64,000 bases of DNA, taken from assembly GCA_951406725.2 (NCBI GenBank), contig OX597815.1:73036001-73100000 (forward strand), read 5' to 3'. A program made the position numbers and the translations under genes. Within the stretch, counting starts at the first letter, position 1. Each line of letters begins with the position of its first letter. Below are positions 7,209 to 53,965 of this stretch, piece after piece. Source of the DNA: Octopus vulgaris. Lineage: Eukaryota. The notes below the pieces were generated by a model, which saw only the letters and a list, made by a program, of their open reading frames with translations, was not told where the DNA came from and made no database searches.

Positions 7209-7214
7209 ATAATG

Positions 7215-7274
<60 letters not shown>

Positions 7275-7276
<2 letters not shown>

Positions 7277-7480
7277 CCTTTCTACTATAGGCACAAGGCC
7301 TGAAAATTGGAGTAGTTGATTACATCGACCCTAGTACTCAACTAGAACTTAATTTATCGAACCCCAAAGGATGAAAGGCAAATTCGACATCGGCGGAATT
7401 TGAACTCAGAACGTAGCGACGGGCGAAATAACGCTAAGCATTCCGTCCAGCGTGCTAACAATTCTGCCAGCTCGCCACCT
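7275..7480 (-). mobile_element. tRNA-derived SINE within (AAT)n
   Basis: Same family, adjacent copy. Confidence 0.75.
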
Positions 7481-7491
7481 CAGTAACATTA

Positions 7492-7626
<135 letters not shown>

Positions 7627-8120: not shown

Positions 8121-8200
<80 letters not shown>

Positions 8201-8201
<1 letters not shown>

Positions 8202-8562
8202 AAACAAGTGGATGTATTCCACCGAAACTAGGTAAATAAAACCATCGAACAGAGATTGTCGGAAGCGACACCTACTGGCTGGCTACGCTGCATTGAAAAG
8301 GGGCAATACCCTGAAACGCGTCTGTAGCTGCCAGTCAAGTAGTGTGGAGCGACTGACCTCCCTTGTTCGAAGGTTATATGGATACAGTTTGTGTATCAAA
8401 TAGCTAACTTAAGGCGATGGCCTCATGGAGCTAATAAGCGGACAGCTTTTTTCTTATTTTTATAAGAATGCCATATTAGTATGGCGATAACTATTATTTT
8501 CCGGGAACGCTGCCGCTGTTCTCTTTTAGAGAGACTTAGTTATTTTAATATTTCTATTATTG
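8201..8562 (+). repeat. 362-bp hammerhead-containing tandem repeat unit 1 (retrozyme-like) with an empty LINE target site
   Basis: AAAACAAGTGGATG starts at 8201 and again at 8563 and 21916; uninterrupted AGAGATTGTC-GGAAGCGACACCTACTG-GCTGGC at 8251-8283; preceded by (TA)n. Confidence 0.9.
8274..8335 (+). ncRNA. Minimal type I hammerhead ribozyme, U3-A8 core variant
   Basis: Stem I GCTGCA(8287-92)/TGTAGC(8323-28); core TTGAAAA; stem II GGGG-caata-CCCT; GAAA; palindromic ACGCGT stem III; GTC triplet (predicted cut after 8322); outer stem I ACTGGC/GCCAGT. Confidence 0.8.
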
Positions 8563-8619
8563 AAAACAAGTGGATGTATTCCACCGAAACTAGGTAAATA
8601 AAACCATCGAACAGAGATT

Positions 8620-10630
8620 TTATTGTTGTATGCCAGACTTGTTCGGGGACATACTGGCAAGCGTCTAAGCAAACTGGCAACAGAATGGGAGGATTCCCAG
8701 TTCTGTGAGCCGGGGAGTTGTGACGCTGATCAAGAAAGACCCGAGCAAGGGGGATAATATTAGTAATTATAGGCCCATAACTCTACTTAATGTAGAGTTA
8801 AAGATTTTGGCCAAGGTGTTAGCAGAAAGGTTGAAGGTCGTCATGGAAAAACTTGTCGGAAAGGCACAGACATGTGCAATCCCAGGCAGGTCGATCGAAG
8901 ATAATCTTCACCTTCTACGCTACACTATAGACAGGGTTGGGCAATTAGCCGGCAAAGGAGGGGCATTGGTCCATTTAGACCAAAGTAAAGCATTTGATAG
9001 GGTAGATCATCAGTACCTGGCGACGGTTCTCGAAGCGGCTGGGCTAGGTCCTGACTTTCGCGGGTGGATATCAGCTATGTACAGCGGTATCAAGTCCACA
9101 GTCCAGATAAACGGTTACTTAACGGAACCATTTTCGATTAAGCGTTCAGTTCGTCAAGGATGTCCCTTGTCCCCTCTCCTGTACGTTTTGGCTCTTGAGC
9201 CATTGCTGCGGAAGTTGGAGACGGTGAGATGCAATCCTAATGAAATCGGATGCGGTAAGTCTGTTTCTGCGTATGCGGATGACGTCACCTTCATCGTGTC
9301 CAACGAAGCACAACTAACTCGTGTAGAAGGTGCTCTCCGAAGATACGAAGCGGTGGCTGGGGCAAAAGTTAACAAGGACAAGTCCACTAGTTTGCGCCTC
9401 GGCACCTGGAGGAACAAGCCGATATCGTCCAGTGTTGTTGGACACTGGACAGATGGTCCTGTTAAATTGCTTGGAGTTTGGTTTGGTTCAGACTCCCAGA
9501 CGGAGAAAAATTGGAGCGAGGTAGTGACCAAGGTAGAAGCCATAGTTCGGGAGTGGTCCGGAAGGCATCTTTCCTTGAAAGGGAGGGCGGAGGTGGTACA
9601 GGTGTTTATAGCATCTGTAATCACCTATCGCCTGACTGTCGTGCCTTGCCCCGATTTGTGGCTAAGCAAGTTGGATCGACTCCTTTTCCGCTTTTTGTGG
9701 AAGGGAGGAAAGCCACTTGTAAGGCGCTCCGTGTGTTGCCAGGAACCACTAAAGGATGGGCTGGGGATGCCTTGGTTAATGATGCGCAGGCATGCGCTGA
9801 GACTGAGACATCTCTGGTTTCACCTGGAAGGTGATAAGGTGTGGAGTCCGCTGGCAGATAATTTCTTCCCGCAACCGGACTCTATGGAGAGATTTAAACC
9901 CGGTTTCATTAAAAGACGGAACCTGACTTTATGGCAGAAAGAGTGCCGACAGGCACTCTGGCTGATCCACAAGATAGGCAAAGCCGGCTGCGGGAATACC
10001 ACCTCGACATTTTATAGAAGGATGGTAGAGGCAAAAAATGACGACGTCCTAAGAGGGTCTCTGGGGTTCGATGAGGATCAACTATCCGACCTGTTTAAGA
10101 AGACTTTCAAGCCGGGGTATTTGGACAATTACCAAAAATCCCTGACTTGGCAGTGCTATAGGAATGCTCTACCTGTTCGCGATAAGTTATATAGGCATGG
10201 AATGTCAGTGCCACCGACATGTCCAAGATGTGGGTTGGACGATGAAACCGTCCAGCACGCTTTTGTACATTGTCAGGAGCTGTCAGGCTTAATAAGTTAC
10301 GTAGAACACGTGTTGTCGCATCTGGGACGAGTACAGCTATCGGCTGGTTCTATAATAAAGATGATACCGCCAGCTGGACTCTCAAAGGAAGGTGAGGCTT
10401 GTTTTCACTGTACGGTGGCAGTACTGAAAGAGTGTGTGTGGAGAACTAGATTGGAAGGTTTGGTGTCAGGAACCTTTGTCTCTGGATATGGTATGTTAAA
10501 ATACTTCAGATACCATCTAAAGAGCAAAATGGATTTAGAGAAGAGGAACCTGACACAGAAAAAGTATGTGAATCGATGGAAGGATGTGATAAAAAAGGTG
10601 GGTGTGAGTAACCCTGCTTGGTCATCATGA
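8620..10630 (+). pseudogene. Truncated ORF2 (RT + C-terminal CCHC) of copy A
   Basis: Lacks the endonuclease; private TAC>TAA stop at 8666-8668; RT motifs LDQSKAFDRV, QGCPLSP, YADD present. Confidence 0.9.
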
Positions 10631-10866
10631 AGGGAGAAAATAGTCTCTGGGCTCTTAGGCTGTCGGGTAAGAATCCTGACTGTGATATATCTAGCTGGCC
10701 AAAATCATTTTTAATTTTAAAAAAAAAGGAGAAAAGTAAAGTCTAGTATCATAATCAATAATCAACATATGTAAATATCAAACGAACAACGTAAACTTTT
10801 TGTAATTATGTTTTGTATTGTAATGTACTATCTCTGTAAGATTTTTATAATCATAATAAAGATTTA
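8620..10866 (+). mobile_element. Tx1-clade LINE copy A, 5'-truncated
   Basis: Matches the 3' 2.25 kb of the full-length copies; joins the target unit at ...CAGAGATT via T microhomology; followed by the 17-bp target. Confidence 0.93.
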
Positions 10867-10883
10867 GGAAGCGACACCTACTG
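10867..10883 (+). repeat. 17-bp target-site duplication GGAAGCGACACCTACTG
   Basis: Identical copies at 8261, 10867, 16241, 21614, 21976, 27349 and 32723. Confidence 0.95.
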
Positions 10884-11100
10884 ATTTTTCCTTGGATTAC
10901 GTCGGATTATTTTACGCTGTAAGCTGTTATGTTAGTTCGTTCTGTTCTGGATTTACACGTACAATTTTTGGAGTATTAACTTGTGAAACAAAGTAATTTT
11001 CGCCCTTCGGGGTAGAAAATTTCTTTTTATATATGAACTTTAATTCAGTGTGGATTTAATTTTTATCTTGTCTCTTGTGACAAGTCACTTGCATTTTATT

Positions 11101-12582
11101 ATGGATCTTGACTTAACGTCAAATTCTGATTTTCCCGAGATGGGAGAAGTTATAAAGCAAAAGGATACAAAGGAGAAACAAAGTTTTTCGGAAGCCGTTG
11201 GAGGCAATGTTATAGAACTGGAAGTAACAATGGAGGATCTCTTCAAGTTCAGAAAGTTCATACAAAGGAATGGAGAAGAAACGAGAATAATACCGCCCCC
11301 TGACACCTTACAAGCAATCCGTGAGAAGACGGTAATTTATAAGGTATATAATATTAAGGAAAAAAAGATTGCAGATGTAAGAAATGAATTGGTAGAACGG
11401 TGCATGGCACCAATTTGGAACAAGGTTCGCTATGTTGGCCGAGGAGTGAGAAGCGCTACTATTGAAGCGCATTTCGAGTCGGCTAGCATAGCGAAGGAAA
11501 TTTCAACTCAAACGTTGAAGAGTGCAGACATCCTGTTGCTGCCCACGTACTTAGGGCGCAGAACAGCTAAGATAACAATAGAGGATATACCAACAGGTTA
11601 CGATGTAATGTGGGCAGCAACAGCGGTCGTATTCGACGTAGAAGAGAAATTAAACATTTTAAACATGAGGATGAAAGAGGCAAAATTTTGGAAAGGTCAG
11701 CAGCTTGAAATGATCGTTCAAGCTGACAATGCAACGCTGGAGAGTTTGCCAGACAGGGTCTTCGTGGGGGATGGACACACTGCGCGGGTATCGGTTGAGG
11801 GACGTAGGCCCAGATGTTTCAAATGTGGGCAGAAGGGTCACGTCCGCTCAGAGTGCAAAAAGAAAAAACCCGTTAATGCCCCCATTCAAACCGCTGTGGA
11901 GAACAAAGCAGACATCACAGCAACAACTAAAGAGAATACCCGGAAAAAGCAAAATGAAAGTCAAAAGGAGGAAAAGAAAATGAATGGAAAACAAAGCGAA
12001 AACGAAAACGAGGTGGAAAATATTTTATCAAATGGAAAAGAACTGGAAGTAATGGAATATACGACTGTAACCAACAAAAGGAAGAAATCCAATACCCCGG
12101 ACTCCCCACCCCAAACAAAAAGAAAAACAAACGCAGAAGAACAACACAAAAAAATTATCCAATCCCACCCCGCTGGCACTACTTTTGTAGGCCAGCATTT
12201 CATTAAACCCCAGCCCCCAACTTTAAAAGGATTCAAAAAAACCGATAGGTGCATTGCTTATAACATAAAAAACGAGAGAGTAGTTTGGTACATAAAGGCG
12301 AAACCAAACATAAAATGTTTCAAATCATCGGAAAAAAACCCGGATTGGAGGTATGCGAAGGTTGGAGAGGAGGAATGGAAGGAGAGACTCTTCCAACTAC
12401 ACGTGAGGGACAACCTGATTAAAGATGTCACACAAGAGGTGATAGCTGGAAAATTGAATATTAGCCCGGCAGCCACTCCATCCCAGAGCCCGGTGGCAAC
12501 GCCGGTTAAATGCCCAGCAACAACGGAGAGTGTGGGGGAGGCAGGCAGACAAAAGCTGCCATGCTCCCTCTCACAACCGTAA
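11101..12582 (+). CDS. ORF1 gag-like nucleic-acid-binding protein with CCHC zinc knuckle
   Basis: CFKCGQKGHVRSEC knuckle; first ATG at 11101 (ORF track starts at GTG 11050). Confidence 0.88.
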   Translation: MDLDLTSNSDFPEMGEVIKQKDTKEKQSFSEAVGGNVIELEVTMEDLFKFRKFIQRNGEETRIIPPPDTLQAIREKTVIYKVYNIKEKKIADVRNELVERCMAPIWNKVRYVGRGVRSATIEAHFESASIAKEISTQTLKSADILLLPTYLGRRTAKITIEDIPTGYDVMWAATAVVFDVEEKLNILNMRMKEAKFWKGQQLEMIVQADNATLESLPDRVFVGDGHTARVSVEGRRPRCFKCGQKGHVRSECKKKKPVNAPIQTAVENKADITATTKENTRKKQNESQKEEKKMNGKQSENENEVENILSNGKELEVMEYTTVTNKRKKSNTPDSPPQTKRKTNAEEQHKKIIQSHPAGTTFVGQHFIKPQPPTLKGFKKTDRCIAYNIKNERVVWYIKAKPNIKCFKSSEKNPDWRYAKVGEEEWKERLFQLHVRDNLIKDVTQEVIAGKLNISPAATPSQSPVATPVKCPATTESVGEAGRQKLPCSLSQP

Positions 12583-12606
12583 GTAACAAACTTTCTTCAT
12601 TCATCG

Positions 12607-15600
12607 ATGATTAAGTTGGGCTGTATAAATGTGCGTGGAATGGGGTCGAAATGGAAACAGGCTTGCTTGCTGGACGACCTCAGGACACACAGAATAGATG
12701 TAGCCATTGTCACCGAGTCCAAGATGAGAGGAACCCAAGCGTTCTCGCATCTTCTCAATGGTTACGAGAAATTTATTTCTCCTAGCCGAGGAGGAAGTGC
12801 AGGCGTGGCAGTCCTTATCAGGAAGAACTTGGACTTACAGGTAAGTACTGTCTTTATGGACCCAGAAGGTAGGCTGGTTGTCCTCGATGTAACTCACGTA
12901 AGTAAGCAGTCCTTCAGGTTGGTAGCTGTTTATGCTCCTAATGAGGGTAGGCAGACTGGTTTTTATCGGAACTTGGAGCACTTTCTAGTGACGTCTAAAA
13001 CGGTAGTATTGGTAGGGGATTTCAACACTATCATCGATGCGCGGATAGATAGTGTGGGCTCGTCTGATAGAAGGGGGAATCCTTGCCTTAAGGGTCTACT
13101 GACGAGCTTTAATCTAGTAGATCGGTTTCGAATGGATGAGCCGAGCATTCCACAGTGGACGTGGAGTAACAATGACGGCTCACGCAGATCGTATATAGAT
13201 AGGGTATTTGTTAAAGAACGAGATAGGAATAGCATTAGCTGTCCACAATTTTGTATTGTGCCTTACACGGATCACAAATTAGTGACGTGTGAGGTACATG
13301 TAGATAAATGCCATAGACAGGGACCCGGATACTGGAAAATGAACAAGTCTATTTTGGCTTGTGAAGCTTTCCGTAACCGGATTATGGAATTAGTCCAGAG
13401 GGCATTATGTGGAACCATCATTAATAATAGATGGTGGATCGCCCTCAAAAGAGCCATCCGTTTGGAGTCCATTAGATTTAGCAACCAGCTAAGTTTAGAT
13501 AGGACTAGAATAGAGGGCGATTTAGTTAAGAACTTAGACGAGGCAATGGGATCTGGCTGTGCATCTAGAGTGTTAGCAGAGAGAACGATCTTGTACCGTC
13601 ACCTCAATGCCAAGCATGAAGGATGTAGAGTCAGAGCTAAGCTACGTGCAGTGAAACGAGAAGGTATTAATGTTGCCGGATGGGCACGTCGTGTGGAGAG
13701 TCAGAAGGGCAAAAAGTCCTCTATTAAGTCTTTAACTGACGAACAGGGACGCAAAATCTATGGACAGGAGGAGATACAGAAGGTCTTTCAACAGCATTTC
13801 GCTCGGTTGTTTGGGGAGGGCGATCCACTCGAGCGAGGGGAGGACTTACAGAACTTCCTAGCTGGTGGGCCTCGGCTCTCGCCAAGCAGAGCTGAACGCT
13901 GTGAAGGACCGATTACTCCCGCGGAGGTAAGAGGGGTTTTGGCTGAATGCGCCCGGGAAAAGTCGCCGGGACTGGATGGTCTGCCCTATGAGTTTTATTG
14001 TTGTATGCCGGACTTGTTCGGGGACATACTGGCAAGCGTCTACGCAAACTGGCAACAGAATGGGAGGATTCCCAGTTCTGTGAGCCGGGGAGTTGTGACG
14101 CTGATCCAGAAAGACCCGAGCAAGGGGGATAATATTAGTAATTATAGGCCCATAACTCTACTTAATGTAGAGTTAAAGATTTTGGCCAAGGTGTTAGCAG
14201 AAAGGTTGAAGGTCGTCATGGAAAAACTTGTCGGAAAGGCACAGACATGTGCAATCCCAGGCAGGTCGATCGAAGATAATCTTCACCTTCTACGCTACAC
14301 TATAGACAGGGTTGGGCAATTAGCCGGCAAAGGAGGGGCATTGGTCCATTTAGACCAAAGTAAAGCATTTGATAGGGTAGATCATCAGTACCTGGCGACG
14401 GTTCTCGAAGCGGCTGGGCTAGGTCCTGACTTTCGCGGGTGGATATCAGCTATGTACAGCGGTATCAAGTCCACAGTCCAGATAAACGGTTACTTAACGG
14501 AACCATTTTCGATTAAGCGTTCAGTTCGTCAAGGATGTCCCTTGTCCCCTCTCCTGTACGTTTTGGCTCTTGAGCCATTGCTGCGGAAGTTGGAGACGGT
14601 GAGATGCAATCCTAATGAAATCGGATGCGGTAAGTCTGTTTCTGCGTATGCGGATGACGTCACCTTCATCGTGTCCAACGAAGCACAACTAACTCGTGTA
14701 GAAGGTGCTCTCCGAAGATACGAAGCGGTGGCTGGGGCAAAAGTTAACAAGGACAAGTCCACTGGTTTGCGCCTCGGCACCTGGAGGAACAAGCCGATAT
14801 CGTCCAGTGTTGTTGGACACTGGACAGATGGTCCTGTTAAATTGCTTGGAGTTTGGTTTGGTTCAGACTCCCAGACGGAGAAAAATTGGAGCGAGGTAGT
14901 GACCAAGGTAGAAGCCATAGTTCGGGAGTGGTCCGGAAGGCATCTTTCCTTGAAAGGGAGGGCGGAGGTGGTACAGGTGTTTATAGCATCTGTAATCACC
15001 TATCGCCTGACTGTCGTGCCTTGCCCCGATTTGTGGCTAAGCAAGTTGGATCGACTCCTTTTCCGCTTTTTGTGGAAGGGAGGAAAGCCACTTGTAAGGC
15101 GCTCCGTGTGTTGCCAGGAACCACTAAAGGGTGGACTGGGGATGCCTTGGTTAATGATGCGCAGGCATGCGCTGAGACTGAGACATCTCTGGTTTCACCT
15201 GGAAGGTGATAAGGTGTGGAGTCCGCTGGCAGATAATTTCTTCCCGCAACCGGACTCTATGGAGAGATTTAAACCCGGTTTCATTAAAAGACGGAACCTG
15301 ACTTTATGGCAGAAAGAGTGCCGACAGGCACTCTGGCTGATCCACAAGATAGGCAAAGCCGGCTGCGGGAATACCACCTCGACATTTTATAGAAGGATGG
15401 TAGAGGCAAAAAATGACGACGTCCTAAGAGGGTCTCTGGGGTTCGATGAGGATCAACTATCCGACCTGTTTAAGAAGACTTTCAAGCCGGGGTATTTGGA
15501 CAATTACCAAAAATCCCTGACTTGGCAGTGCTATAGGAATGCTCTACCTGTTCGCGATAAGTTATATAGGCATGGAATGTCAGTGCCACCGACATGTCCA

Positions 15601-16005
15601 AGATGTGGGTTGGACGATGAAACCGTCCAGCACGCTTTTGTACATTGTCAGGAGCTGTCAGGCTTAATAAGTTACGTAGAACACGTGTTGTCGCATCTGG
15701 GACGAGTACAGCTATCGGCTGGTTCTATAATAAAGATGATACCGCCAGCTGGACTCTCAAAGGAAGGTGAGGCTTGTTTTCACTGTACGGTGGCAGTACT
15801 GAAAGAGTGTGTGTGGAGAACTAGATTGGAAGGTTTGGTGTCAGGAACCTTTGTCTCTGGATATGGTATGTTAAAATACTTCAGATACCATCTAAAGAGC
15901 AAAATGGATTTAGAGAAGAGGAACCTGACACAGAAAAAGTATGTGAATCGATGGAAGGATGTGATAAAAAAGGTGGGTGTGAGTAACCCTGCTTGGTCAT
16001 CATGA
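12607..16005 (+). CDS. ORF2: APE endonuclease + reverse transcriptase + C-terminal CCHC (1132 aa), L1/Tx1 type
   Basis: CINVRG, VYAP, GDFN, YIDR, TDH (APE); GPGYWKMN; KSPGLDGL, NYRPITLLN, LDQSKAFDRV, VRQGCPLSP, YADD (RT); GGLG; CPRC..ETVQHAFVHC. Confidence 0.96.
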   Translation: MIKLGCINVRGMGSKWKQACLLDDLRTHRIDVAIVTESKMRGTQAFSHLLNGYEKFISPSRGGSAGVAVLIRKNLDLQVSTVFMDPEGRLVVLDVTHVSKQSFRLVAVYAPNEGRQTGFYRNLEHFLVTSKTVVLVGDFNTIIDARIDSVGSSDRRGNPCLKGLLTSFNLVDRFRMDEPSIPQWTWSNNDGSRRSYIDRVFVKERDRNSISCPQFCIVPYTDHKLVTCEVHVDKCHRQGPGYWKMNKSILACEAFRNRIMELVQRALCGTIINNRWWIALKRAIRLESIRFSNQLSLDRTRIEGDLVKNLDEAMGSGCASRVLAERTILYRHLNAKHEGCRVRAKLRAVKREGINVAGWARRVESQKGKKSSIKSLTDEQGRKIYGQEEIQKVFQQHFARLFGEGDPLERGEDLQNFLAGGPRLSPSRAERCEGPITPAEVRGVLAECAREKSPGLDGLPYEFYCCMPDLFGDILASVYANWQQNGRIPSSVSRGVVTLIQKDPSKGDNISNYRPITLLNVELKILAKVLAERLKVVMEKLVGKAQTCAIPGRSIEDNLHLLRYTIDRVGQLAGKGGALVHLDQSKAFDRVDHQYLATVLEAAGLGPDFRGWISAMYSGIKSTVQINGYLTEPFSIKRSVRQGCPLSPLLYVLALEPLLRKLETVRCNPNEIGCGKSVSAYADDVTFIVSNEAQLTRVEGALRRYEAVAGAKVNKDKSTGLRLGTWRNKPISSSVVGHWTDGPVKLLGVWFGSDSQTEKNWSEVVTKVEAIVREWSGRHLSLKGRAEVVQVFIASVITYRLTVVPCPDLWLSKLDRLLFRFLWKGGKPLVRRSVCCQEPLKGGLGMPWLMMRRHALRLRHLWFHLEGDKVWSPLADNFFPQPDSMERFKPGFIKRRNLTLWQKECRQALWLIHKIGKAGCGNTTSTFYRRMVEAKNDDVLRGSLGFDEDQLSDLFKKTFKPGYLDNYQKSLTWQCYRNALPVRDKLYRHGMSVPPTCPRCGLDDETVQHAFVHCQELSGLISYVEHVLSHLGRVQLSAGSIIKMIPPAGLSKEGEACFHCTVAVLKECVWRTRLEGLVSGTFVSGYGMLKYFRYHLKSKMDLEKRNLTQKKYVNRWKDVIKKVGVSNPAWSS

Positions 16006-16474
16006 AGGGAGAAAATAGTCTCTGGGCTCTTAGGCTGTCGGGTAAGAATCCTGACTGTGATATATCTAGCTGGCCAAAATCATTTTTAATTTTAAAAAAA
16101 AGGAGAAAAGTAAAGTCTAGTATCATAATCAATAATCAACATATGTAAATATCAAACGAACAACGTAAACTTTTTGTAATTATGTTTTGTATTGTAATGT
16201 ACTATCTCTGTAAGATTTTTATAATCATAATAAAGATTTAGGAAGCGACACCTACTGATTTTTCCTTGGATTACGTCGGATTATTTTACGCTGTAAGCTG
16301 TTATGTTAGTTCGTTCTGTTCTGGATTTACACGTACAATTTTTGGAGTATTAACTTGTGAAACAAAGTAATTTTCGCCCTTCGGGGTAGAAAATTTCTTT
16401 TTATATATGAACTTTAATTCAGTGTGGATTTAATTTTTATCTTGTCTCTTGTGACAAGTCACTTGCATTTTATT

Positions 16475-17955
16475 ATGGATCTTGACTTAACGTCAAATTC
16501 TGATTTTCCCGAGATGGGAGAAGTTATAAAGCAAAAGGATACAAAGGAGAAACAAAGTTTTTCGGAAGCCGTTGGAGGCAATGTTATAGAACTGGAAGTA
16601 ACAATGGAGGATCTCTTCAAGTTCAGAAAGTTCATACAAAGGAATGGAGAAGAAACGAGAATAATACCGCCCCTGACACCTTACAAGCAATCCGTGAGAA
16701 GACGGTAATTTATAAGGTATATAATATTAAGGAAAAAAAGATTGCAGATGTAAGAAATGAATTGGTAGAACGGTGCATGGCACCAATTTGGAACAAGGTT
16801 CGCTATGTTGGCCGAGGAGTGAGAAGCGCTACTATTGAAGCGCATTTCGAGTCGGCTAGCATAGCGAAGGAAATTTCAACTCAAACGTTGAAGAGTGCAG
16901 ACATCCTGTTGCTGCCCACGTACTTAGGGCGCAGAACAGCTAAGATAACAATAGAGGATATACCAACAGGTTACGATGTAATGTGGGCAGCAACAGCGGT
17001 CGTATTCGACGTAGAAGAGAAATTAAACATTTTAAACATGAGGATGAAAGAGGCAAAATTTTGGAAAGGTCAGCAGCTTGAAATGATCGTTCAAGCTGAC
17101 AATGCAACGCTGGAGAGTTTGCCAGACAGGGTCTTCGTGGGGGATGGACACACTGCGCGGGTATCGGTTGAGGGACGTAGGCCCAGATGTTTCAAATGTG
17201 GGCAGAAGGGTCACGTCCGCTCAGAGTGCAAAAAGAAAAAACCCGTTAATGCCCCCATTCAAACCGCTGTGGAGAACAAAGCAGACATCACAGCAACAAC
17301 TAAAGAGAATACCCGGAAAAAGCAAAATGAAAGTCAAAAGGAGGAAAAGAAAATGAATGGAAAACAAAGCGAAAACGAAAACGAGGTGGAAAATATTTTA
17401 TCAAATGGAAAAGAACTGGAAGTAATGGAATATACGACTGTAACCAACAAAAGGAAGAAATCCAATACCCCGGACTCCCCACCCCAAACAAAAAGAAAAA
17501 CAAACGCAGAAGAACAACACAAAAAAATTATCCAATCCCACCCCGCTGGCACTACTTTTGTAGGCCAGCATTTCATTAAACCCCAGCCCCCAACTTTAAA
17601 AGGATTCAAAAAAACCGATAGGTGCATTGCTTATAACACAAAAAACGAGAGAGTAGTTTGGTACATAAAGGCGAAACCAAACATAAAATGTTTCAAATCA
17701 TCGGAAAAAAACCCGGATTGGAGGTATGCGAAGGTTGGAGAGGAGGAATGGAAGGAGAGACTCTTCCAACTACACGTGAGGGACAACCTGATTAAAGATG
17801 TCACACAAGAGGTGATAGCTGGAAAATTGAATATTAGCCCGGCAGCCACTCCATCCCAGAGCCCGGTGGCAACGCCGGTTAAATGCCCAGCAACAACGGA
17901 GAGTGTGGGGGAGGCAGGCAGACAAAAGCTGCCATGCTCCCTCTCACAACCGTAA
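16475..17955 (+). pseudogene. ORF1 of copy C, frameshifted (possibly sequencing error)
   Basis: Split into 16424-16708 and 16762-17955 by C4 vs C5 run. Confidence 0.75.
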
Positions 17956-17979
17956 GTAACAAACTTTCTTCATTCATCG

Positions 17980-20900
17980 ATGATTAAGTTGGGCTGTATA
18001 AATGTGCGTGGAATGGGGTCGAAATGGAAACAGGCTTGCTTGCTGGACGACCTCAGGACACACAGAATAGATGTAGCCATTGTCACCGAGTCCAAGATGA
18101 GAGGAACCCAAGCGTTCTCGCATCTTCTCAATGGTTACGAGAAATTTATTTCTCCTAGCCGAGGAGGAAGTGCAGGCGTGGCAGTCCTTATCAGGAAGAA
18201 CTTGGACTTACAGGTAAGTACTGTCTTTATGGACCCAGAAGGTAGGCTGGTTGTCCTCGATGTAACTCACGTAAGTAAGCAGTCCTTCAGGTTGGTAGCT
18301 GTTTATGCTCCTAATGAGGGTAGGCAGACTGGTTTTTATCGGAACTTGGAGCACTTTCTAGTGACGTCTAAAACGGTAGTATTGGTAGGGGATTTCAACA
18401 CTATCATCGATGCGCGGATAGATAGTGTGGGCTCGTCTGATAGAAGGGGAATCCTTGCCTTAAGGGTCTACTGACGAGCTTTAATCTAGTAGATCGGTTT
18501 CGAATGGATGAGCCGAGCATTCCACAGTGGACGTGGAGTAACAATGACGGCTCACGCAGATCGTATATAGATAGGGTATTTGTTAAAGAACGAGATAGGA
18601 ATAGCATTAGCTGTCCACAATTTTGTATTGTGCCTTACACGGATCACAAATTAGTGACGTGTGAGGTACATGTAGATAAATGCCATAGACAGGGACCCGG
18701 ATACTGGAAAATGAACAAGTCTATTTTGGCTTGTGAAGCTTTCCGTAACCGGATTATGGAATTAGTCCAGAGGGCATTATGTGGAACCATCATTAATAAT
18801 AGATGGTGGATCGCCCTCAAAAGAGCCATCCGTTTGGAGTCCATTAGATTTAGCAACCAGCTAAGTTTAGATAGGACTAGAATAGAGGGCGATTTAGTTA
18901 AGAACTTAGACGAGGCAATGGGATCTGGCTGTGCATCTAGAGTGTTAGCAGAGAGAACGATCTTGTACCGTCACCTCAATGCCAAGCATGAAGGATGTAG
19001 AGTCAGAGCTAAGCTACGTGCAGTGAAACGAGAAGGTATTAATGTTGCCGGATGGGCACGTCGTGTGGAGAGTCAGAAGGGCAAAAAGTCCTCTATTAAG
19101 TCTTTAACTGACGAACAGGGACGCAAAATCTATGGACAGGAGGAGATACAGAAGGTCTTTCAACAGCATTTCGCTCGGTTGTTTGGGGAGGGCGATCCAC
19201 TCGAGCGAGGGGAGGACTTACAGAACTTCCTAGCTGGTGGGCCTCGGCTCTCGCCAAGCAGAGCGGAACGCTGTGAAGGACCGATTACTCCCGCGGAGGT
19301 AAGAGGGGTTTTGGCTGAATGCGCCCGGGAAAAGTCGCCGGGACTGGATGGTCTGCCCTATGAGTTTTATTGTTGTATGCCGGACTTGTTCGGGGACATA
19401 CTGGCAAGCGTCTACGCAAACTGGCAACAGAATGGGAGGATTCCCAGTTCTGTGAGCCGGGGAGTTGTGACGCTGATCCAGAAAGACCCGAGCAAGGGGG
19501 ATAATATTAGTAATTATAGGCCCATAACTCTACTTAATGTAGAGTTAAAGATTTTGGCCAAGGTGTTAGCAGAAAGGTTGAAGGTCGTCATGGAAAAACT
19601 TGTCGGAAAGGCACAGACATGTGCAATCCCAGGCAGGTCGATCGAAGATAATCTTCACCTTCTACGCTACACTATAGACAGGGTTGGGCAATTAGCCGGC
19701 AAAGGAGGGGCATTGGTCCATTTAGACCAAAGTAAAGCATTTGATAGGGTAGATCATCAGTACCTGGCGACGGTTCTCGAAGCGGCTGGGCTAGGTCCTG
19801 ACTTTCGCGGGTGGATATCAGCTATGTACAGCGGTATCAAGTCCACAGTCCAGATAAACGGTTACTTAACGGAACCATTTTCGATTAAGCGTTCAGTTCG
19901 TCAAGGATGTCCCTTGTCCCCTCTCCTGTACGTTTTGGCTCTTGAGCCATTGCTGCGGAAGTTGGAGACGGTGAGATGCAATCCTAATGAAATCGGATGC
20001 GGTAAGTCTGTTTCTGCGTATGCGGATGACGTCACCTTCATCGTGTCCAACGAAGCACAACTAACTCGTGTAGAAGGTGCTCTCCGAAGATACGAAGCGG
20101 TGGCTGGGGCAAAAGTTAACAAGGACAAGTCCACTAGTTTGCGCCTCGGCACCTGGAGGAACAAGCCGATATCGTCCAGTGTTGTTGGACACTGGACAGA
20201 TGGTCCTGTTAAATTGCTTGGAGTTTGGTTTGGTTCAGACTCCCAGACGGAGAAAAATTGGAGCGAGGTAGTGACCAAGGTAGAAGCCATAGTTCGGGAG
20301 TGGTCCGGAAGGCATCTTTCCTTGAAAGGGAGGGCGGAGGTGGTACAGGTGTTTATAGCATCTGTAATCACCTATCGCCTGACTGTCGTGCCTTGCCCCG
20401 ATTTGTGGCTAAGCAAGTTGGATCGACTCCTTTTCCGCTTTTTGTGGAAGGGAGGAAAGCCACTTGTAAGGCGCTCCGTGTGTTGCCAGGAACCACTAAA
20501 GGGTGGGCTGGGGATGCCTTGGTTAATGATGCGCAGGCATGCGCTGAGACTGAGACATCTCTGGTTTCACCTGGAAGGTGATAAGGTGTGGAGTCCGCTG
20601 GCAGATAATTTCTTCCCGCAACCGGACTCTATGGAGAGATTTAAACCCGGTTTCATTAAAAGACGGAACCTGACTTTATGGCAGAAAGAGTGCCGACAGG
20701 CACTCTGGCTGATCCACAAGATAGGCAAAGCCGGCTGCGGGAATACCACCTCGACATTTTATAGAAGGATGGTAGAGGCAAAAAATGACGACGTCCTAAG
20801 AGGGTCTCTGGGGTTCGATGAGGATCAACTATCCGACCTGTTTAAGAAGACTTTCAAGCCGGGGTATTTGGACAATTACCAAAAATCCCTGACTTGGCAG

Positions 20901-21377
20901 TGCTATAGGAATGCTCTACCTGTTCGCGATAAGTTATATAGGCATGGAATGTCAGTGCCACCGACATGTCCAAGATGTGGGTTGGACGATGAAACCGTCC
21001 AGCACGCTTTTGTACATTGTCAGGAGCTGTCAGGCTTAATAAGTTACGTAGAACACGTGTTGTCGCATCTGGGACGAGTACAGCTATCGGCTGGTTCTAT
21101 AATAAAGATGATACCGCCAGCTGGACTCTCAAAGGAAGGTGAGGCTTGTTTTCACTGTACGGTGGCAGTACTGAAAGAGTGTGTGTGGAGAACTAGATTG
21201 GAAGGTTTGGTGTCAGGAACCTTTGTCTCTGGATATGGTATGTTAAAATACTTCAGATACCATCTAAAGAGCAAAATGGATTTAGAGAAGAGGAACCTGA
21301 CACAGAAAAAGTATGTGAATCGATGGAAGGATGTGATAAAAAAGGTGGGTGTGAGTAACCCTGCTTGGTCATCATGA
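17980..21377 (+). pseudogene. ORF2 of copy C, frameshifted (possibly sequencing error)
   Basis: Split into 17980-18474 and 18504-21377 by G4 vs G5 run. Confidence 0.75.
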
Positions 21378-21613
21378 AGGGAGAAAATAGTCTCTGGGCT
21401 CTTAGGCTGTCGGGTAAGAATCCTGACTGTGATATATCTAGCTGGCCAAAATCATTTTTAATTTTAAAAAAAAAGGAGAAAAGTAAAGTCTAGTATCATA
21501 ATCAATAATCAACATATGTAAATATCAAACGAACAACGTAAACTTTTTGTAATTATGTTTTGTATTGTAATGTACTATCTCTGTAAGATTTTTATAATCA
21601 TAATAAAGATTTA

Positions 21614-21992
21614 GGAAGCGACACCTACTGGCTGGCTACGCTGCATTGAAAAGGGGCAATACCCTGAAACGCGTCTGTAGCTGCCGGTCAAGTAGTGTGG
21701 AGCGACTAGACCTCCCTTGTTCGAAGGTTATATGGATACAGTTTGTGTATCAAATAGCTAACTTAAGGCGATGGCCTCATGGAGCTAATAAGCGGACAGC
21801 TTTTTCTTATTTTTATAAGAATGCCATATTAGTATGGCGATAACTATTATTTTCCGGGAACGCTGCCGCTGTTCTCTTTTAGAGAGACTTAGTTATTTTA
21901 ATATTTCTATTATTGAAAACAAGTGGATGTATTCCACCGAAACTAGGTAAATAAAACCATCGAACAGAGATTGTCGGAAGCGACACCTACTG
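21614..21992 (+). repeat. One full period of the 362-bp hammerhead repeat between LINE copies C and D
   Basis: Nearly identical to 8261-8622; 17-mer to 17-mer distance is 362 bp. Confidence 0.93.
21627..21688 (+). ncRNA. Minimal type I hammerhead ribozyme (copy 2)
   Basis: Same motif as 8274-8335; GCCAGT>GCCGGT change converts a U-A pair to U-G. Confidence 0.8.
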
Positions 21993-22209
21993 ATTTTTCC
22001 TTGGATTACGTCGGATTATTTTACGCTGTAAGCTGTTATGTTAGTTCGTTCTGTTCTGGATTTACACGTACAATTTTTGGAGTATTAACTTGTGAAACAA
22101 AGTAATTTTCGCCCTTCGGGGTAGAAAATTTCTTTTTATATATGAACTTTAATTCAGTGTGGATTTAATTTTTATCTTGTCTCTTGTGACAAGTCACTTG
22201 CATTTTATT

Positions 22210-23689
22210 ATGGATCTTGACTTAACGTCAAATTCTGATTTTCCCGAGATGGGAGAAGTTATAAAGCAAAAGGATACAAAGGAGAAACAAAGTTTTTCGG
22301 AAGCCGTTGGAGGCAATGTTATAGAACTGGAAGTAACAATGGAGGATCTCTTCAAGTTCAGAAAGTTCATACAAAGGAATGGAGAAGAAACGAGAATAAT
22401 ACCGCCCCCTGACACCTTACAAGCAATCCGTGAGAAGACGGTAATTTATAAGGTATATAATATTAAGGAAAAAAAGATTGCAGATGTAAGAAATGAATTG
22501 GTAGAACGGTGCATGGCACCAATTTGGAACAAGGTTCGCTATGTTGGCCGAGGAGTGAGAAGCGCTACTATTGAAGCGCATTTCGAGTCGGCTAGCATAG
22601 CGAAGGAAATTTCAACTCAAACGTTGAAGAGTGCAGACATCCTGTTGCTGCCCACGTACTTAGGGCGCAGAACAGCTAAGATAACAATAGAGGATATACC
22701 AACAGGTTACGATGTAATGTGGGCAGCAACAGCGGTCGTATTCGACGTAGAAGAGAAATTAAACATTTTAAACATGAGGATGAAAGAGGCAAAATTTTGG
22801 AAAGGTCAGCAGCTTGAAATGATCGTTCAAGCTGACAATGCAACGCTGGAGAGTTTGCCAGACAGGGTCTTCGTGGGGGATGGACACACTGCGCGGGTAT
22901 CGGTTGAGGGACGTAGGCCCAGATGTTTCAAATGTGGGCAGAAGGGTCACGTCCGCTCAGAGTGCAAAAGAAAAAACCCGTTAATGCCCCCATTCAAACC
23001 GCTGTGGAGAACAAAGCAGACATCACAGCAACAACTAAAAGAATACCCGGAAAAAGCAAAATGAAAGTCAAAAGGAGGAAAAGAAAATGAATGGAAAACA
23101 AAGCGAAAACGAAAACGAGGTGGAAAATATTTTATCAAATGGAAAAGAACTGGAAGTAATGGAATATACGACTGTAACCAACAAAAGGAAGAAATCCAAT
23201 ACCCCGGACTCCCCACCCCAAACAAAAAGAAAAACAAACGCAGAAGAACAACACAAAAAAATTATCCAATCCCACCCCGCTGGCACTACTTTTGTAGGCC
23301 AGCATTTCATTAAACCCCAGCCCCCAACTTTAAAAGGATTCAAAAAAACCGATAGGTGCATTGCTTATAACATAAAAAACGAGAGAGTAGTTTGGTACAT
23401 AAAGGCGAAACCAAACATAAAATGTTTCAAATCATCGGAAAAAAACCCGGATTGGAGGTATGCGAAGGTTGGAGAGGAGGAATGGAAGGAGAGACTCTTC
23501 CAACTACACGTGAGGGACAACCTGATTAAAGATGTCACACAAGAGGTGATAGCTGGAAAATTGAATATTAGCCCGGCAGCCACTCCATCCCAGAGCCCGG
23601 TGGCAACGCCGGTTAAATGCCCAGCAACAACGGAGAGTGTGGGGGAGGCAGGCAGACAAAAGCTGCCATGCTCCCTCTCACAACCGTAA
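22210..23689 (+). pseudogene. ORF1 of copy D, frameshifted (possibly sequencing error)
   Basis: Small deletions in A-rich runs near 22970 and 23040. Confidence 0.7.
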
Positions 23690-23713
23690 GTAACAAACTT
23701 TCTTCATTCATCG

Positions 23714-26700
23714 ATGATTAAGTTGGGCTGTATAAATGTGCGTGGAATGGGGTCGAAATGGAAACAGGCTTGCTTGCTGGACGACCTCAGGACACACAGA
23801 ATAGATGTAGCCATTGTCACCGAGTCCAAGATGAGAGGAACCCAAGCGTTCTCGCATCTTCTCAATGGTTACGAGAAATTTATTTCTCCTAGCCGAGGAG
23901 GAAGTGCAGGCGTGGCAGTCCTTATCAGGAAGAACTTGGACTTACAGGTAAGTACTGTCTTTATGGACCCAGAAGGTAGGCTGGTTGTCCTCGATGTAAC
24001 TCACGTAAGTAAGCAGTCCTTCAGGTTGGTAGCTGTTTATGCTCCTAATGAGGGTAGGCAGACTGGTTTTTATCGGAACTTGGAGCACTTTCTAGTGACG
24101 TCTAAAACGGTAGTATTGGTAGGGGATTTCAACACTATCATCGATGCGCGGATAGATAGTGTGGGCTCGTCTGATAGAAGGGGGAATCCTTGCCTTAAGG
24201 GTCTACTGACGAGCTTTAATCTAGTAGATCGGTTTCGAATGGATGAGCCGAGCATTCCACAGTGGACGTGGAGTAACAATGACGGCTCACGCAGATCGTA
24301 TATAGATAGGGTATTTGTTAAAGAACGAGATAGGAATAGCATTAGCTGTCCACAATTTTGTATTGTGCCTTACACGGATCACAAATTAGTGACGTGTGAG
24401 GTACATGTAGATAAATGCCATAGACAGGGACCCGGATACTGGAAAATGAACAAGTCTATTTTGGCTTGTGAAGCTTTCCGTAACCGGATTATGGAATTAG
24501 TCCAGAGGGCATTATGTGGAACCATCATTAATAATAGATGGTGGATCGCCCTCAAAAGAGCCATCCGTTTGGAGTCCATTAGATTTAGCAACCAGCTAAG
24601 TTTAGATAGGACTAGAATAGAGGGCGATTTAGTTAAGAACTTAGACGAGGCAATGGGATCTGGCTGTGCATCTAGAGTGTTAGCAGAGAGAACGATCTTG
24701 TACCGTCACCTCAATGCCAAGCATGAAGGATGTAGAGTCAGAGCTAAGCTACGTGCAGTGAAACGAGAAGGTATTAATGTTGCCGGATGGGCACGTCGTG
24801 TGGAGAGTCAGAAGGGCAAAAAGTCCTCTATTAAGTCTTTAACTGACGAACAGGGACGCAAAATCTATGGACAGGAGGAGATACAGAAGGTCTTTCAACA
24901 GCATTTCGCTCGGTTGTTTGGGGAGGGCGATCCACTCGAGCGAGGGGAGGACTTACAGAACTTCCTAGCTGGTGGGCCTCGGCTCTCGCCAAGCAGAGCT
25001 GAACGCTGTGAAGGACCGATTACTCCCGCGGAGGTAAGAGGGGTTTTGGCTGAATGCGCCCGGGAAAAGTCGCCGGGACTGGATGGTCTGCCCTATGAGT
25101 TTTATTGTTGTATGCCGGACTTGTTCGGGGACATACTGGCAAGCGTCTACGCAAACTGGCAACAGAATGGGAGGATTCCCAGTTCTGTGAGCCGGGGAGT
25201 TGTGACGCTGATCCAGAAAGACCCGAGCAAGGGGGATAATATTAGTAATTATAGGCCCATAACTCTACTTAATGTAGAGTTAAAGATTTTGGCCAAGGTG
25301 TTAGCAGAAAGGTTGAAGGTCGTCATGGAAAAACTTGTCGGAAAGGCACAGACATGTGCAATCCCAGGCAGGTCGATCGAAGATAATCTTCACCTTCTAC
25401 GCTACACTATAGACAGGGTTGGGCAATTAGCCGGCAAAGGAGGGGCATTGGTCCATTTAGACCAAAGTAAAGCATTTGATAGGGTAGATCATCAGTACCT
25501 GGCGACGGTTCTCGAAGCGGCTGGGCTAGGTCCTGACTTTCGCGGGTGGATATCAGCTATGTACAGCGGTATCAAGTCCACAGTCCAGATAAACGGTTAC
25601 TTAACGGAACCGTTTTCGATTAAGCGTTCAGTTCGTCAAGGATGTCCCTTGTCCCCTCTCCTGTACGTTTTGGCTCTTGAGCCATTGCTGCGGAAGTTGG
25701 AGACGGTGAGATGCAATCCTAATGAAATCGGATGCGGTAAGTCTGTTTCTGCGTATGCGGATGACGTCACCTTCATCGTGTCCAACGAAGCACAACTAAC
25801 TCGTGTAGAAGGTGCTCTCCGAAGATACGAAGCGGTGGCTGGGGCAAAAGTTAACAAGGACAAGTCCACTGGTTTGCGCCTCGGCACCTGGAGGAACAAG
25901 CCGATATCGTCCAGTGTTGTTGGACACTGGACAGATGGTCCTGTTAAATTGCTTGGAGTTTGGTTTGGTTCAGACTCCCAGACGGAGAAAAATTGGAGCG
26001 AGGTAGTGACCAAGGTAGAAGCCATAGTTCGGGAGTGGTCCGGAAGGCATCTTTCCTTGAAAGGGAGGGCGGAGGTGGTACAGGTGTTTATAGCATCTGT
26101 AATCACCTATCGCCTGACTGTCGTGCCTTGCCCCGATTTGTGGCTAAGCAAGTTGGATCGACTCCTTTTCCGCTTTTTGTGGAAGGGAGGAAAGCCACTT
26201 GTAAGGCGCTCCGTGTGTTGCCAGGAACCACTAAAGGGTGGGCTGGGGATGCCTTGGTTAATGATGCGCAGGCATGCGCTGAGACTGAGACATCTCTGGT
26301 TTCACCTGGAAGGTGATAAGGTGTGGAGTCCGCTGGCAGATAATTTCTTCCCGCAACCGGACTCTATGGAGAGATTTAAACCCGGTTTCATTAAAAGACG
26401 GAACCTGACTTTATGGCAGAAAGAGTGCCGACAGGCACTCTGGCTGATCCACAAGATAGGCAAAGCCGGCTGCGGGAATACCACCTCGACATTTTATAGA
26501 AGGATGGTAGAGGCAAAAAATGACGACGTCCTAAGAGGGTCTCTGGGGTTCGATGAGGATCAACTATCCGACCTGTTTAAGAAGACTTTCAAGCCGGGGT
26601 ATTTGGACAATTACCAAAAATCCCTGACTTGGCAGTGCTATAGGAATGCTCTACCTGTTCGCGATAAGTTATATAGGCATGGAATGTCAGTGCCACCGAC

Positions 26701-27112
26701 ATGTCCAAGATGTGGGTTGGACGATGAAACCGTCCAGCACGCTTTTGTACATTGTCAGGAGCTGTCAGGCTTAATAAGTTACGTAGAACACGTGTTGTCG
26801 CATCTGGGACGAGTACAGCTATCGGCTGGTTCTATAATAAAGATGATACCGCCAGCTGGACTCTCAAAGGAAGGTGAGGCTTGTTTTCACTGTACGGTGG
26901 CAGTACTGAAAGAGTGTGTGTGGAGAACTAGATTGGAAGGTTTGGTGTCAGGAACCTTTGTCTCTGGATATGGTATGTTAAAATACTTCAGATACCATCT
27001 AAAGAGCAAGATGGATTTAGAGAAGAGGAACCTGACACAGAAAAAGTATGTGAATCGATGGAAGGATGTGATAAAAAAGGTGGGTGTGAGTAACCCTGCT
27101 TGGTCATCATGA
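23714..27112 (+). CDS. ORF2 APE-RT-CCHC of copy D (intact)
   Basis: 1132 aa, same motifs as copy B. Confidence 0.96.
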   Translation: MIKLGCINVRGMGSKWKQACLLDDLRTHRIDVAIVTESKMRGTQAFSHLLNGYEKFISPSRGGSAGVAVLIRKNLDLQVSTVFMDPEGRLVVLDVTHVSKQSFRLVAVYAPNEGRQTGFYRNLEHFLVTSKTVVLVGDFNTIIDARIDSVGSSDRRGNPCLKGLLTSFNLVDRFRMDEPSIPQWTWSNNDGSRRSYIDRVFVKERDRNSISCPQFCIVPYTDHKLVTCEVHVDKCHRQGPGYWKMNKSILACEAFRNRIMELVQRALCGTIINNRWWIALKRAIRLESIRFSNQLSLDRTRIEGDLVKNLDEAMGSGCASRVLAERTILYRHLNAKHEGCRVRAKLRAVKREGINVAGWARRVESQKGKKSSIKSLTDEQGRKIYGQEEIQKVFQQHFARLFGEGDPLERGEDLQNFLAGGPRLSPSRAERCEGPITPAEVRGVLAECAREKSPGLDGLPYEFYCCMPDLFGDILASVYANWQQNGRIPSSVSRGVVTLIQKDPSKGDNISNYRPITLLNVELKILAKVLAERLKVVMEKLVGKAQTCAIPGRSIEDNLHLLRYTIDRVGQLAGKGGALVHLDQSKAFDRVDHQYLATVLEAAGLGPDFRGWISAMYSGIKSTVQINGYLTEPFSIKRSVRQGCPLSPLLYVLALEPLLRKLETVRCNPNEIGCGKSVSAYADDVTFIVSNEAQLTRVEGALRRYEAVAGAKVNKDKSTGLRLGTWRNKPISSSVVGHWTDGPVKLLGVWFGSDSQTEKNWSEVVTKVEAIVREWSGRHLSLKGRAEVVQVFIASVITYRLTVVPCPDLWLSKLDRLLFRFLWKGGKPLVRRSVCCQEPLKGGLGMPWLMMRRHALRLRHLWFHLEGDKVWSPLADNFFPQPDSMERFKPGFIKRRNLTLWQKECRQALWLIHKIGKAGCGNTTSTFYRRMVEAKNDDVLRGSLGFDEDQLSDLFKKTFKPGYLDNYQKSLTWQCYRNALPVRDKLYRHGMSVPPTCPRCGLDDETVQHAFVHCQELSGLISYVEHVLSHLGRVQLSAGSIIKMIPPAGLSKEGEACFHCTVAVLKECVWRTRLEGLVSGTFVSGYGMLKYFRYHLKSKMDLEKRNLTQKKYVNRWKDVIKKVGVSNPAWSS

Positions 27113-27582
27113 AGGGAGAAAATAGTCTCTGGGCTCTTAGGCTGTCGGGTAAGAATCCTGACTGTGATATACCTAGCTGGCCAAAATCATTTTTAATTTT
27201 AAAAAAAAAGGAGAAAAGTAAAGTCTAGTATCATAATCAATAATCAACATATGTAAATATCAAACGAACAACGTAAACTTTTTGTAATTATGTTTTGTAT
27301 TGTAATGTACTATCTCTGTAAGATTTTTATAATCATAATAAAGATTTAGGAAGCGACACCTACTGATTTTTCCTTGGATTACGTCGGATTATTTTACGCT
27401 GTAAGCTGTTATGTTAGTTCGTTCTGTTCTGGATTTACACGTACAATTTTTGGAGTATTAACTTGTGAAACAAAGTAATTTTCGCCCTTCGGGGTAGAAA
27501 ATTTCTTTTTATATATGAACTTTAATTCAGTGTGGATTTAATTTTTATCTTGTCTCTTGTGACAAGTCACTTGCATTTTATT

Positions 27583-29064: not shown

Positions 29065-29088
29065 GTAACAAACTTTCTTCATTCATCG

Positions 29089-32487: not shown

Positions 32488-32722
32488 AGGGAGAAAATAG
32501 TCTCTGGGCTCTTAGGCTGTCGGGTAAGAATCCTGACTGTGATATACCTAGCTGGCCAAAATCATTTTTAATTTTAAAAAAAAGGAGAAAAGTAAAGTCT
32601 AGTATCATAATCAATAATCAACATATGTAAATATCAAACGAACAACGTAAACTTTTTGTAATTATGTTTTGTATTGTAATGTACTATCTCTGTAAGATTT
32701 TTATAATCATAATAAAGATTTA

Positions 32723-32998
32723 GGAAGCGACACCTACTGGCTGGCACGCTGCATTGAAAAGGGGCAATACCCTGAAACGCGTCTGTAGCTGCCGGTCAAG
32801 TAGTGTGGAGCGACTGACCTCCCTTGTTCGAAGGTTATATGGATACAGTTTGTGTATCAAATAGCTAACTTAAGGCGATGGCCTCATGGAGCTAATAAGC
32901 GGACAGCTTTTTTCTTATTTTTATAAGAATGCCATATTAGTATGGCGATAACTATTATTTTCCGGGAACGCTGCCGCTGTTCTCTTTTAGAGAGACTT
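32723..32998 (+). repeat. 3' remainder of the third 362-bp hammerhead repeat unit
   Basis: Matches 8261-8537, then runs into (TA)n. Confidence 0.92.
32736..32796 (+). ncRNA. Minimal type I hammerhead ribozyme (copy 3)
   Basis: Core and stems identical; 1-nt deletion confined to the stem I bulge (TGGCAC vs TGGCTAC). Confidence 0.78.
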
Positions 32999-33011
32999 AT
33001 TTATATTTCTA

Positions 33012-33148
<137 letters not shown>

Positions 33149-53922: not shown

Positions 53923-53961
<39 letters not shown>

Positions 53962-53965
<4 letters not shown>

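Follow-up and report, generated by a model that had tools for sequence, protein, structure and literature searches.

The window analyzed here (64,000 nt of Octopus vulgaris contig OX597815.1) contains a trimer of a 362-bp hammerhead repeat that lies between two (TA)n microsatellite tracts and is interrupted by five copies of a 5.36-kb LINE, 99.8% identical to each other. The left tract (8127..8198) is both the flank and the target of the host repeat, and all features between it and the right tract (33021..33148) are on the + strand. Unit 1 (8201..8562) is a young member of what we call family A. It carries a PSE-like snRNA promoter motif (8204..8217, overlapping the GTGGA/TCCAC hairpin, with promoter function inferred), an empty LINE target whose 17 bp are the sequence duplicated upon insertion (8261..8277, where 8261 is the predicted transcription start), an extended stem I (8258..8351) around a type I hammerhead found by descriptor scan (8287..8328), and a chain of hairpins (8361..8533), four of which recur with compensatory changes in a sister family, B. 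Unit positions (q) are window positions minus 8200, which places the predicted cut after q122.

Unit 2 begins at 8563..8619 (q1-57), with the PSE-like motif repeated at 8566, and lost 3 target bases at its junction with LINE copy 1, which is 5′-truncated (8620..10866). Copy 2 (10883..16240) is full-length, with 17-bp duplications at 10867 and 16241 and open frames for ORF1 (11101-12582, zinc knuckle) and ORF2 (12607-16002, APE endonuclease, RT and zf-RVT); copy 3 (16257..21613) is full-length with interrupted frames. These three copies, one truncated and two full, entered unit 2 at q57/61, and its remainder (21614..21915, q61-362) holds hammerhead 2 (core 21646, predicted cut after 21675). Unit 3 starts at 21916..21992 (q1-77), with a PSE-like motif at 21919 and a predicted start at 21976 directly upstream of LINE copy 4. 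Its insertions, at q61-77, are two full copies: copy 4 (21992..27348, ORF1 frame interrupted, ORF2 open) and copy 5 (27365..32722, both ORFs open, duplication at 27349). The rest of unit 3 (32723..33020, q61-357) holds hammerhead 3 (core 32754, predicted cut after 32783) and stops at the q357-360 family end. The 17-base repeat is identical at every LINE junction of the locus except that of the truncated copy. We presume the LINE to be Tx1-like, a label based on its architecture and site specificity.

The three copies are not adjacent tandem units, since stretches of LINE DNA (13.4 and 11.1 kb) lie between one cleavage site and the next. Nor is 8201, where the original prediction starts the unit, a natural end: genomic copies end at q~297 or q~360. 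Because the LINE arrays hold the hammerheads this far apart, the window locus cannot yield a 362-nt monomer, and it lacks the closely spaced hammerheads of a non-LTR retrozyme. Four features described here go beyond that prediction: the splitting of the trimer by LINEs, an integration anatomy of the Penelope-like element (PLE) type, a motif resembling a promoter, and the site specificity of the LINE.

The hammerhead itself was borne out, with its core at 8293 and predicted cut after 8322. Stem I (8287-8292 paired with 8323-8328) leads into the core TTGAAAA (8293-8299, U3-A8), stem II (8300-8312), GAAA, the palindromic stem III ACGCGT that had been predicted (8316-8321), and GUC, which ends at 8322. 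The descriptor scan finds exactly three such motifs in the window (cores 8293, 21646 and 32754) and 0 in 10 mononucleotide shuffles. G5, A6, A9, G12, A13, A14, the A15.1-U16.1 pair and an NUH cleavage site are all present, positions 3 and 8 form a Watson-Crick pair, and the three stems covary; the pair closing stem II, usually G10.1-C11.1, is here G-C, G.U or A-U, with the window copies having the minority G.U form and G-C being commoner family-wide. By its sequence the window unit is thus a U3-A8 type I hammerhead, with self-cleavage predicted after 8322. A gathering-threshold Rfam scan of the 64-kb window gave 0 hits, and an E-value scan of 8201-8620 gave two chance hits, neither to a hammerhead model. 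The unit is non-coding, with a GC content of 0.41 and a fold z of -7.5, and the tandem locus L024 has 0 ATG ORFs of at least 40 aa.

Two structural claims held in part. All seven arm pairs of the proposed hairpin chain are present, but CCTT/AAGG is paired otherwise in the minimum-energy fold. The stem I difference among copies, read as structure-neutral, does exist, but copy 1 has a rare derived allele there, A at q133 (2/117 aligned pieces, otherwise G), a change of the kind that CpG decay gives. Taken by themselves, the three window copies thus give no sign of covariation.

Covariation had to be sought among genomic copies. The genome (2.8 Gb) is microsatellite-rich, and BLAST with the unit gave 167 matches from 40 scored of 1229 candidates. 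A family A motif, with positions 3, 7, 8 and the center of stem III left free, has 1481 genome matches versus 0 in the control. Among the 100 matches listed (allele tallies are hand counts) all have U3 and A8, both free in the pattern, and 99 have a palindromic stem III hexamer; 59 are young (ACGCGT 58, ACGTGT 1) and 41 old (ACATGT 40, ACTAGT 1). The pair closing stem II is G-C in 49 of these 100, A-U in 35, G.U in 14 and unpaired in 2, and among the 59 young copies listed it is G-C in 49, G.U in 9 and U-C in 1. In a family A alignment of 27 rows (23 distinct), parts of which are fixed by the search patterns, 91.9% of cells pair compared with 17-52% in slid controls. Five pairs are altered on both sides, two outer stem I pairs are broken in 12/23 and 17/23 rows, and the 3-8 pair is invariant. 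The canonical CTGANGA core combined with family A stems occurs 0 times in the genome. Family A is a young, dispersed family with hundreds of near-identical insertions, and its unit is a hammerhead in a non-coding tandem repeat within the 150-450 bp and <50% GC of retrozymes. Example loci with the features of a non-LTR retrozyme are L003, L005, L010 and L024. In four sequencing runs whose RNA origin is a guess, contigs span the whole unit and its head-to-tail junction and have mostly C at 11.1, though DNA or tandem read-through would look alike.

Family B was found as the target of a related LINE. It has a ~355-bp period and 106 motif matches, and C3 in 27/30 loci, where G8 is fixed by the search pattern; a non-canonical C4 is found in 26/30. 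Its loci (L191-L220) show the core CCGATGA (U4C); stem II has a U.U at its base, and stem III is 3 bp long. Families A and B are about 55-60% identical (195/362 columns match) and align over the whole unit (z 9.8-13.2, and 7.1 downstream of the hammerhead alone). Between them 18 of 54 consensus pairs are changed on both sides, in hairpins that include GTGGA/TCCAC, GATACA/TGTATC, AGGC/GCCT, GCCATA/TATGGC and TCTCT/AGAGA, while G5, A6, A9, GAAAC and GUC are kept. The predicted joint change of both 3-8 partners is therefore supported between homologous families (U3-A8 in A, C3-G8 in B), and the conservation and covariation among genomic copies that had been set as a test are seen. Since the pair is invariant inside family A, 3-8 covariation rests largely on one A/B split; the stem covariation likewise mostly reflects that single split, not many events, and the change from ACGCGT to ACATGT is also expected from CpG decay on both strands. 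A tentative family C has two loci (z 4.6 and 3.6 to B) with a decayed core; these (L225, L227) have a strong PSE-like motif and are hosts of the most divergent LINE relatives.

U3-A8 cores, which the original prediction had said can be active, are indeed described in nature and active in vitro (PMC3088659), and schistosome PLEs carry them (PMC4209133); the accessible text of PMC3884650 adds nothing on U3-A8. For a transcript of L010 from q61 to the next q160 (1.3 units) the minimum-energy fold is a double hammerhead, in which the palindromic stem III pairs between cores have probabilities of 0.84-0.999, while the best fold of the monomer mispairs the hammerhead core. This palindrome-paired arrangement has been described for newt, viroid and PLE hammerheads (PMC4209133, PMC6155905). 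From the folding models we infer that the family A hammerhead would be active. The predicted cutting of tandem transcripts into 362-nt monomers is thus plausible for the family, as at L010, but not for the window locus with its LINE-separated hammerheads.

The insertions of family A look like those of PLEs. We compared 108 outer 3′ ends from 64 distinct loci: 99 of them map to q288-301 or q355-362, and 93 run into (TA)n; an inverted arm is found in 48 of the 64 loci. Insertions are 5′-truncated, and arrays have 1-4 units per arm over many contigs. The combination of 5′ truncation, partial tandems, inverted arm, one-sided tail and microsatellite bias is that described for PLE insertions (10.1101/2021.04.23.441226), here as a non-autonomous form; the one-sided tail is ~60 bp here versus 30-40 bp described there.

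Candidate sources of the enzymes are at hand. Intact 784-aa PLEs with RT and GIY-YIG domains and a linker zinc finger are abundant in the genome, and end in (TA)n with two alternative ends. Their hammerheads escape a strict descriptor (4-bp stem I) but not a looser one, by which 13/13 intact loci tested have U3-A8 motifs within their terminal repeats, with TTGAAAA and an ACCGGT palindrome at 9/9 loci of one kind and TTGATAA with GCAA for GAAA at 4/4 of the other. U3-A8 thus seems, on these sequences, to be the usual core of the (TA)n-targeting PLEs of this genome. Between the unit and the 13 autonomous loci (~three families; 150 of 6419 candidates scored) we found no similarity other than one 19-nt AT-rich flank match. 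A partner search with a looser core pattern gave 196 matches versus 67 in the control, and the 100 listed are decayed family A and scattered singletons with no clear partner family. No PSE-like site was found upstream of four autonomous PLE hammerheads. Young intact PLE families of 784/785 aa with U3-A8 minimal hammerheads and ACCGGT palindromes are found at L175-L183. Unrelated elements flanking two of these (minus strand near 5988 in L181 and near 5350 in L183) have hammerhead-like motifs, one U3-A8 with ACCGGT and one C3-G8. The window has its own PLE (53960-57800), which has broken RT and GIY-YIG, lies in (TA)n and has an inverted 3′ arm. Near 57642, in its terminal repeat, is a hammerhead-like motif of the U3-A8 kind in which GCAA replaces GAAA, just as intact members of the family have it.

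The motif at q4 resembles snRNA promoters. U1 and U2 genes have a common motif at -56 to -59 in 7/7 upstream regions, which represent few independent promoter types. When the U1/U2 matrix is run over family A, the best of 726 positions (score 9.5) is 57 nt upstream of the LINE insertion point; scores of at least 8 occur at 2.3e-4 per position in the window. An old family A copy with a 4-base deletion has the motif at -53, and the best matrix sites of both family C loci are at -58 and -59. In family B the site at -57/-58, or at -63 in a copy that has an insertion, matches the U1/U2 heptamer exactly but ranks second to third, with scores of 3.1-3.5; distinct true promoters left out of the matrix score 3.5-6.6. 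Since a U1/U2-type motif sits 57 nt upstream of it, as in snRNA-type promoters, q61 is probably the transcription start of the unit, and the T5-T6 runs in the unit favor Pol II. The 10 U6 upstream regions examined are without the U1/U2 motif; in several U6 genes (L231-L233, L235, L238) we see instead a TATA box near -30 preceded, near -77, by an octamer-like motif. Judged from sequence motifs, Pol II and Pol III promoters are thus markedly split.

The LINE has an ORF1 with a zinc knuckle and an ORF2 with APE, RT and zinc finger, the latter closest to LINE-1 ORF2p among solved structures. An exact protein look-up found no match, and an Atlas look-up returned generic APE-RT clusters only. Outside the window, 12 of 14 near-identical LINE 5′ ends are in the unit, with the 17-bp duplication in 12/12. 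The LINE 3′ end has 31 genome matches, of which 30 were fetched; one is a chance match and one a distant relative. Young-type 3′ ends fall at q61/62 in 21/21 cases (16/16 loci), older-type ends in 0/7 (Fisher p = 4e-6 by locus). Insertion is thus sequence-specific with target duplication, as in the Tx1 clade. Because 5′-truncated copies are found both in the unit (L184, with a perfect duplication) and at U1 (L187), the insertions into the unit are independent events, and the genomic copies demonstrate that the Tx1-like LINE inserts at q61 with a 17-bp duplication.

Relatives of this LINE use other sites. The older or intermediate type is found at ATAC-like or ATAT sites, including position +1 of U1 snRNA genes in a cluster confirmed by Rfam. 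This cluster, with its U1-type insertions, spans G000:C18:48.97-49.21 Mb (L090-L110). All nine more distant 5′ ends examined are at the aligned site of family B (seven, two of them seemingly one duplicated event) or C (two), and exact LINE-B junction matches number 8 versus 0 in the control. In A and B alike the LINE enters 32 nt upstream of the core, although only 4 of 17 target bases are common. A midpoint-rooted tree of ORF2 residues 730-1110, built from decayed copies with no outgroup and leaving out three loci without coverage, places C first, then B, then the U1-type grading into A. The subfamilies that target U1 +1 and the retrozyme are 95% identical in ORF2, and in the endonuclease residues 23, 84 and 146 alone differ consistently between the A-type and the two U1-type copies compared.

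One LINE (L044) lies between two U2 genes, at a non-U1 site, and its head is U1 nt 1-16, which implies that its RNA began at U1 +1. Pure promoter tethering was ruled out for U1-type LINEs, as the off-target sites L044, L188, L189 and L190 lack the motif. At L221 (4043-5760 and 6030-7617) and L224, old family A units have this site occupied, with a ~17-19-bp duplication, by 1.6-1.7-kb elements that have LINE-like 3′ ends and no ORF2 match and are possibly the non-autonomous partner of another LINE family.

We consider it likely that the unit is a kind of non-LTR retrozyme, a non-autonomous retroelement moved by PLE enzymes and parasitized at q61 by the site-specific LINE. The PLE-type insertions in (TA)n, the conserved U3-A8 fold and the mostly shared alleles of each insertion are established at the level of genomic sequence. 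The cycle that we propose starts with the snRNA-type promoter in each unit (motif q4), from which Pol II would transcribe from q61. In a tandem transcript, two hammerheads joined by their palindromic stem III would cleave after q122 and so release a 362-nt monomer, and the monomer, probably ligated to a circle, would be copied round by the PLE reverse transcriptase at (TA)n nicks, giving insertions of 1-4 units and inverted arms. The LINE at +1 would be transcribed from the host promoter, as its relatives would have been from U1, and the hammerhead could cleave its read-through RNA 62 nt beyond the end of the LINE.

The circle is the step with the strongest competitor: the hammerhead may be active while the PLE enzyme jumps repeatedly from one linear monomer template to the next, or copies uncut linear multimers. 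At 13 polymorphic sites (our choice from 35 listed) in 37 loci, there are 51 cases in which every unit of a locus carries the minor allele and 11 in which the units are mixed. The uniform cases fit repeated copying of one monomer-length template, as from a circle, although homogeneous linear sources or gene conversion could also produce them, and the 11 mixed locus-by-site cases favor a linear template. So may L185, where a 5′-truncated LINE is joined to an inverted unit arm through a 7-nt microhomology; this is either PLE copying of a LINE read-through RNA, as a linear template could explain, or a LINE insertion with target deletion. Linear copying sits poorly with the arms of 3-4 units, which persist though every insertion loses 5′ sequence, and circles have been found for the retrozymes of coral, mussel and axolotl (Cervera and de la Peña 2020, PMC7229834). 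Linear templates are a serious contender that we nevertheless think unlikely.

Further from the evidence is the idea that the hammerhead is a vestige, the unit being a detached PLE terminal repeat that moves for its structure with cleavage now irrelevant. PLE minimal hammerheads do cleave poorly in vitro even as dimers (PMC4209133), the GCAA-for-GAAA variant occupies all four loci of one autonomous PLE family, and family B has C4. Yet the catalytic residues listed above are kept between A and B where little more than half of the columns match, positions 3 and 8 change together and the stem III palindrome is kept, and we find a vestige quite improbable. It is more doubtful still that the unit belongs to the LINE, as a terminal part or SINE partner, or travels with it as a composite, so that the position would be inherited, not targeted. 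Young LINE copies always adjoin a unit, and LINE and host divergence are roughly parallel. Against this, ~1481 motifs compare with 16 LINE-bearing loci, unit ends are of PLE type and not LINE type, LINE-LINE junctions hold the duplication only, and duplications match the local host allele; 5′-truncated LINEs flanked on both sides by unit (L184, L186, window copy 1 and a 69-bp piece in L037) largely refute a composite. An ordinary satellite spread by unequal crossing-over with a chance hammerhead-like motif would explain head-to-tail units but hardly 1-4 units per arm over many contigs, inversions, fixed ends in (TA)n, motif controls of 0 and a covarying structure, and can practically be set aside.

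For the LINE we offer a proposal that is speculative and that we ourselves rate as rather improbable. Its lineage may home to the start of snRNA-type promoters and not to a fixed sequence; it would have followed hammerhead retrozymes through ~40% host divergence, and only about three shared endonuclease changes would have accompanied its switch to U1 +1 and its return to a sister retrozyme, at the aligned base. The host promoter would serve its 5′ end and the host ribozyme its 3′ end, and the site would be set by read-through RNA or by tethering through SNAPc.

Neither the hammerhead variant nor the retrozyme class is new, and the link to PLEs has been proposed, with limited life-cycle evidence acknowledged (Li et al. 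2026, 10.64898/2026.07.22.740005). Like metazoan non-LTR retrozymes, the unit is a 150-450 bp tandem repeat with a type I hammerhead, GC <50%, no ORF and a highly self-paired RNA, and it too co-occurs with PLEs; its size is near that of the mussel repeats (350-390 bp) (PMC7229834). It differs in its U3-A8 core, its dispersed inverted insertions of 1-4 units in (TA)n, its LINE parasite and the lack of a detected sequence link to a PLE terminal repeat, and is known here from sequence alone. With PLE minimal hammerheads, including the U3-A8 form of Schistosoma (PMC4209133), it shares U3-A8 covariation, a short palindromic stem III and predicted dimer cleavage, but its stem I is long and bulged, its stem II has 4 bp, and its 362-bp unit is non-coding and does not flank an RT ORF. 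Newt satellite 2, also a hammerhead repeat, has a Pol II promoter of the snRNA type (Coats, Zhang and Epstein 1994, cited in PMC2220036); the internal promoter and dimer cleavage, both predicted here, are similar, while the invertebrate host and PLE-type dispersal are not.

Known site-specific LINEs of the Tx1 clade, whose targets comprise other transposons, snRNA genes and satellites, include Tx1L in Tx1D, Tx1-Mar in Mariner-N4, Keno in U2, and Kibi/Koshi in microsatellites (PMC4494074). The octopus LINE is likewise an APE-RT LINE of the L1 group with a single site in another multicopy sequence, often in tandem. Unlike them it targets hammerhead retrozymes and U1 +1, at a site aligned across host families despite the few shared target bases, and with a change of target between closely similar subfamilies. 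Our literature searches, which did not extend to subscription journals or Repbase, turned up no LINE known to target hammerhead repeats or U1 +1; an unnamed "satellite" target in a tree legend of PMC4494074 may bear on novelty. What appears to be new, from the genomic copies, is promoter-start targeting by a LINE with a recent change of target. Young family A offers a direct view of PLE-type integration of a retrozyme, and the LINE is a natural target-switch experiment, with 95%-identical subfamilies at unrelated targets (U1 +1 or the retrozyme) and on-target insertions always 57 nt downstream of the promoter-like motif. Whether the site is chosen by the enzyme, by read-through RNA or by promoter-bound factors bears on site-specific retrotransposon tools.

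Elsewhere in the window are two adjacent SINE-like copies with long (AAT)n tails (7000-7626) and a degenerate interstitial TTAGGG repeat (46481-46580).
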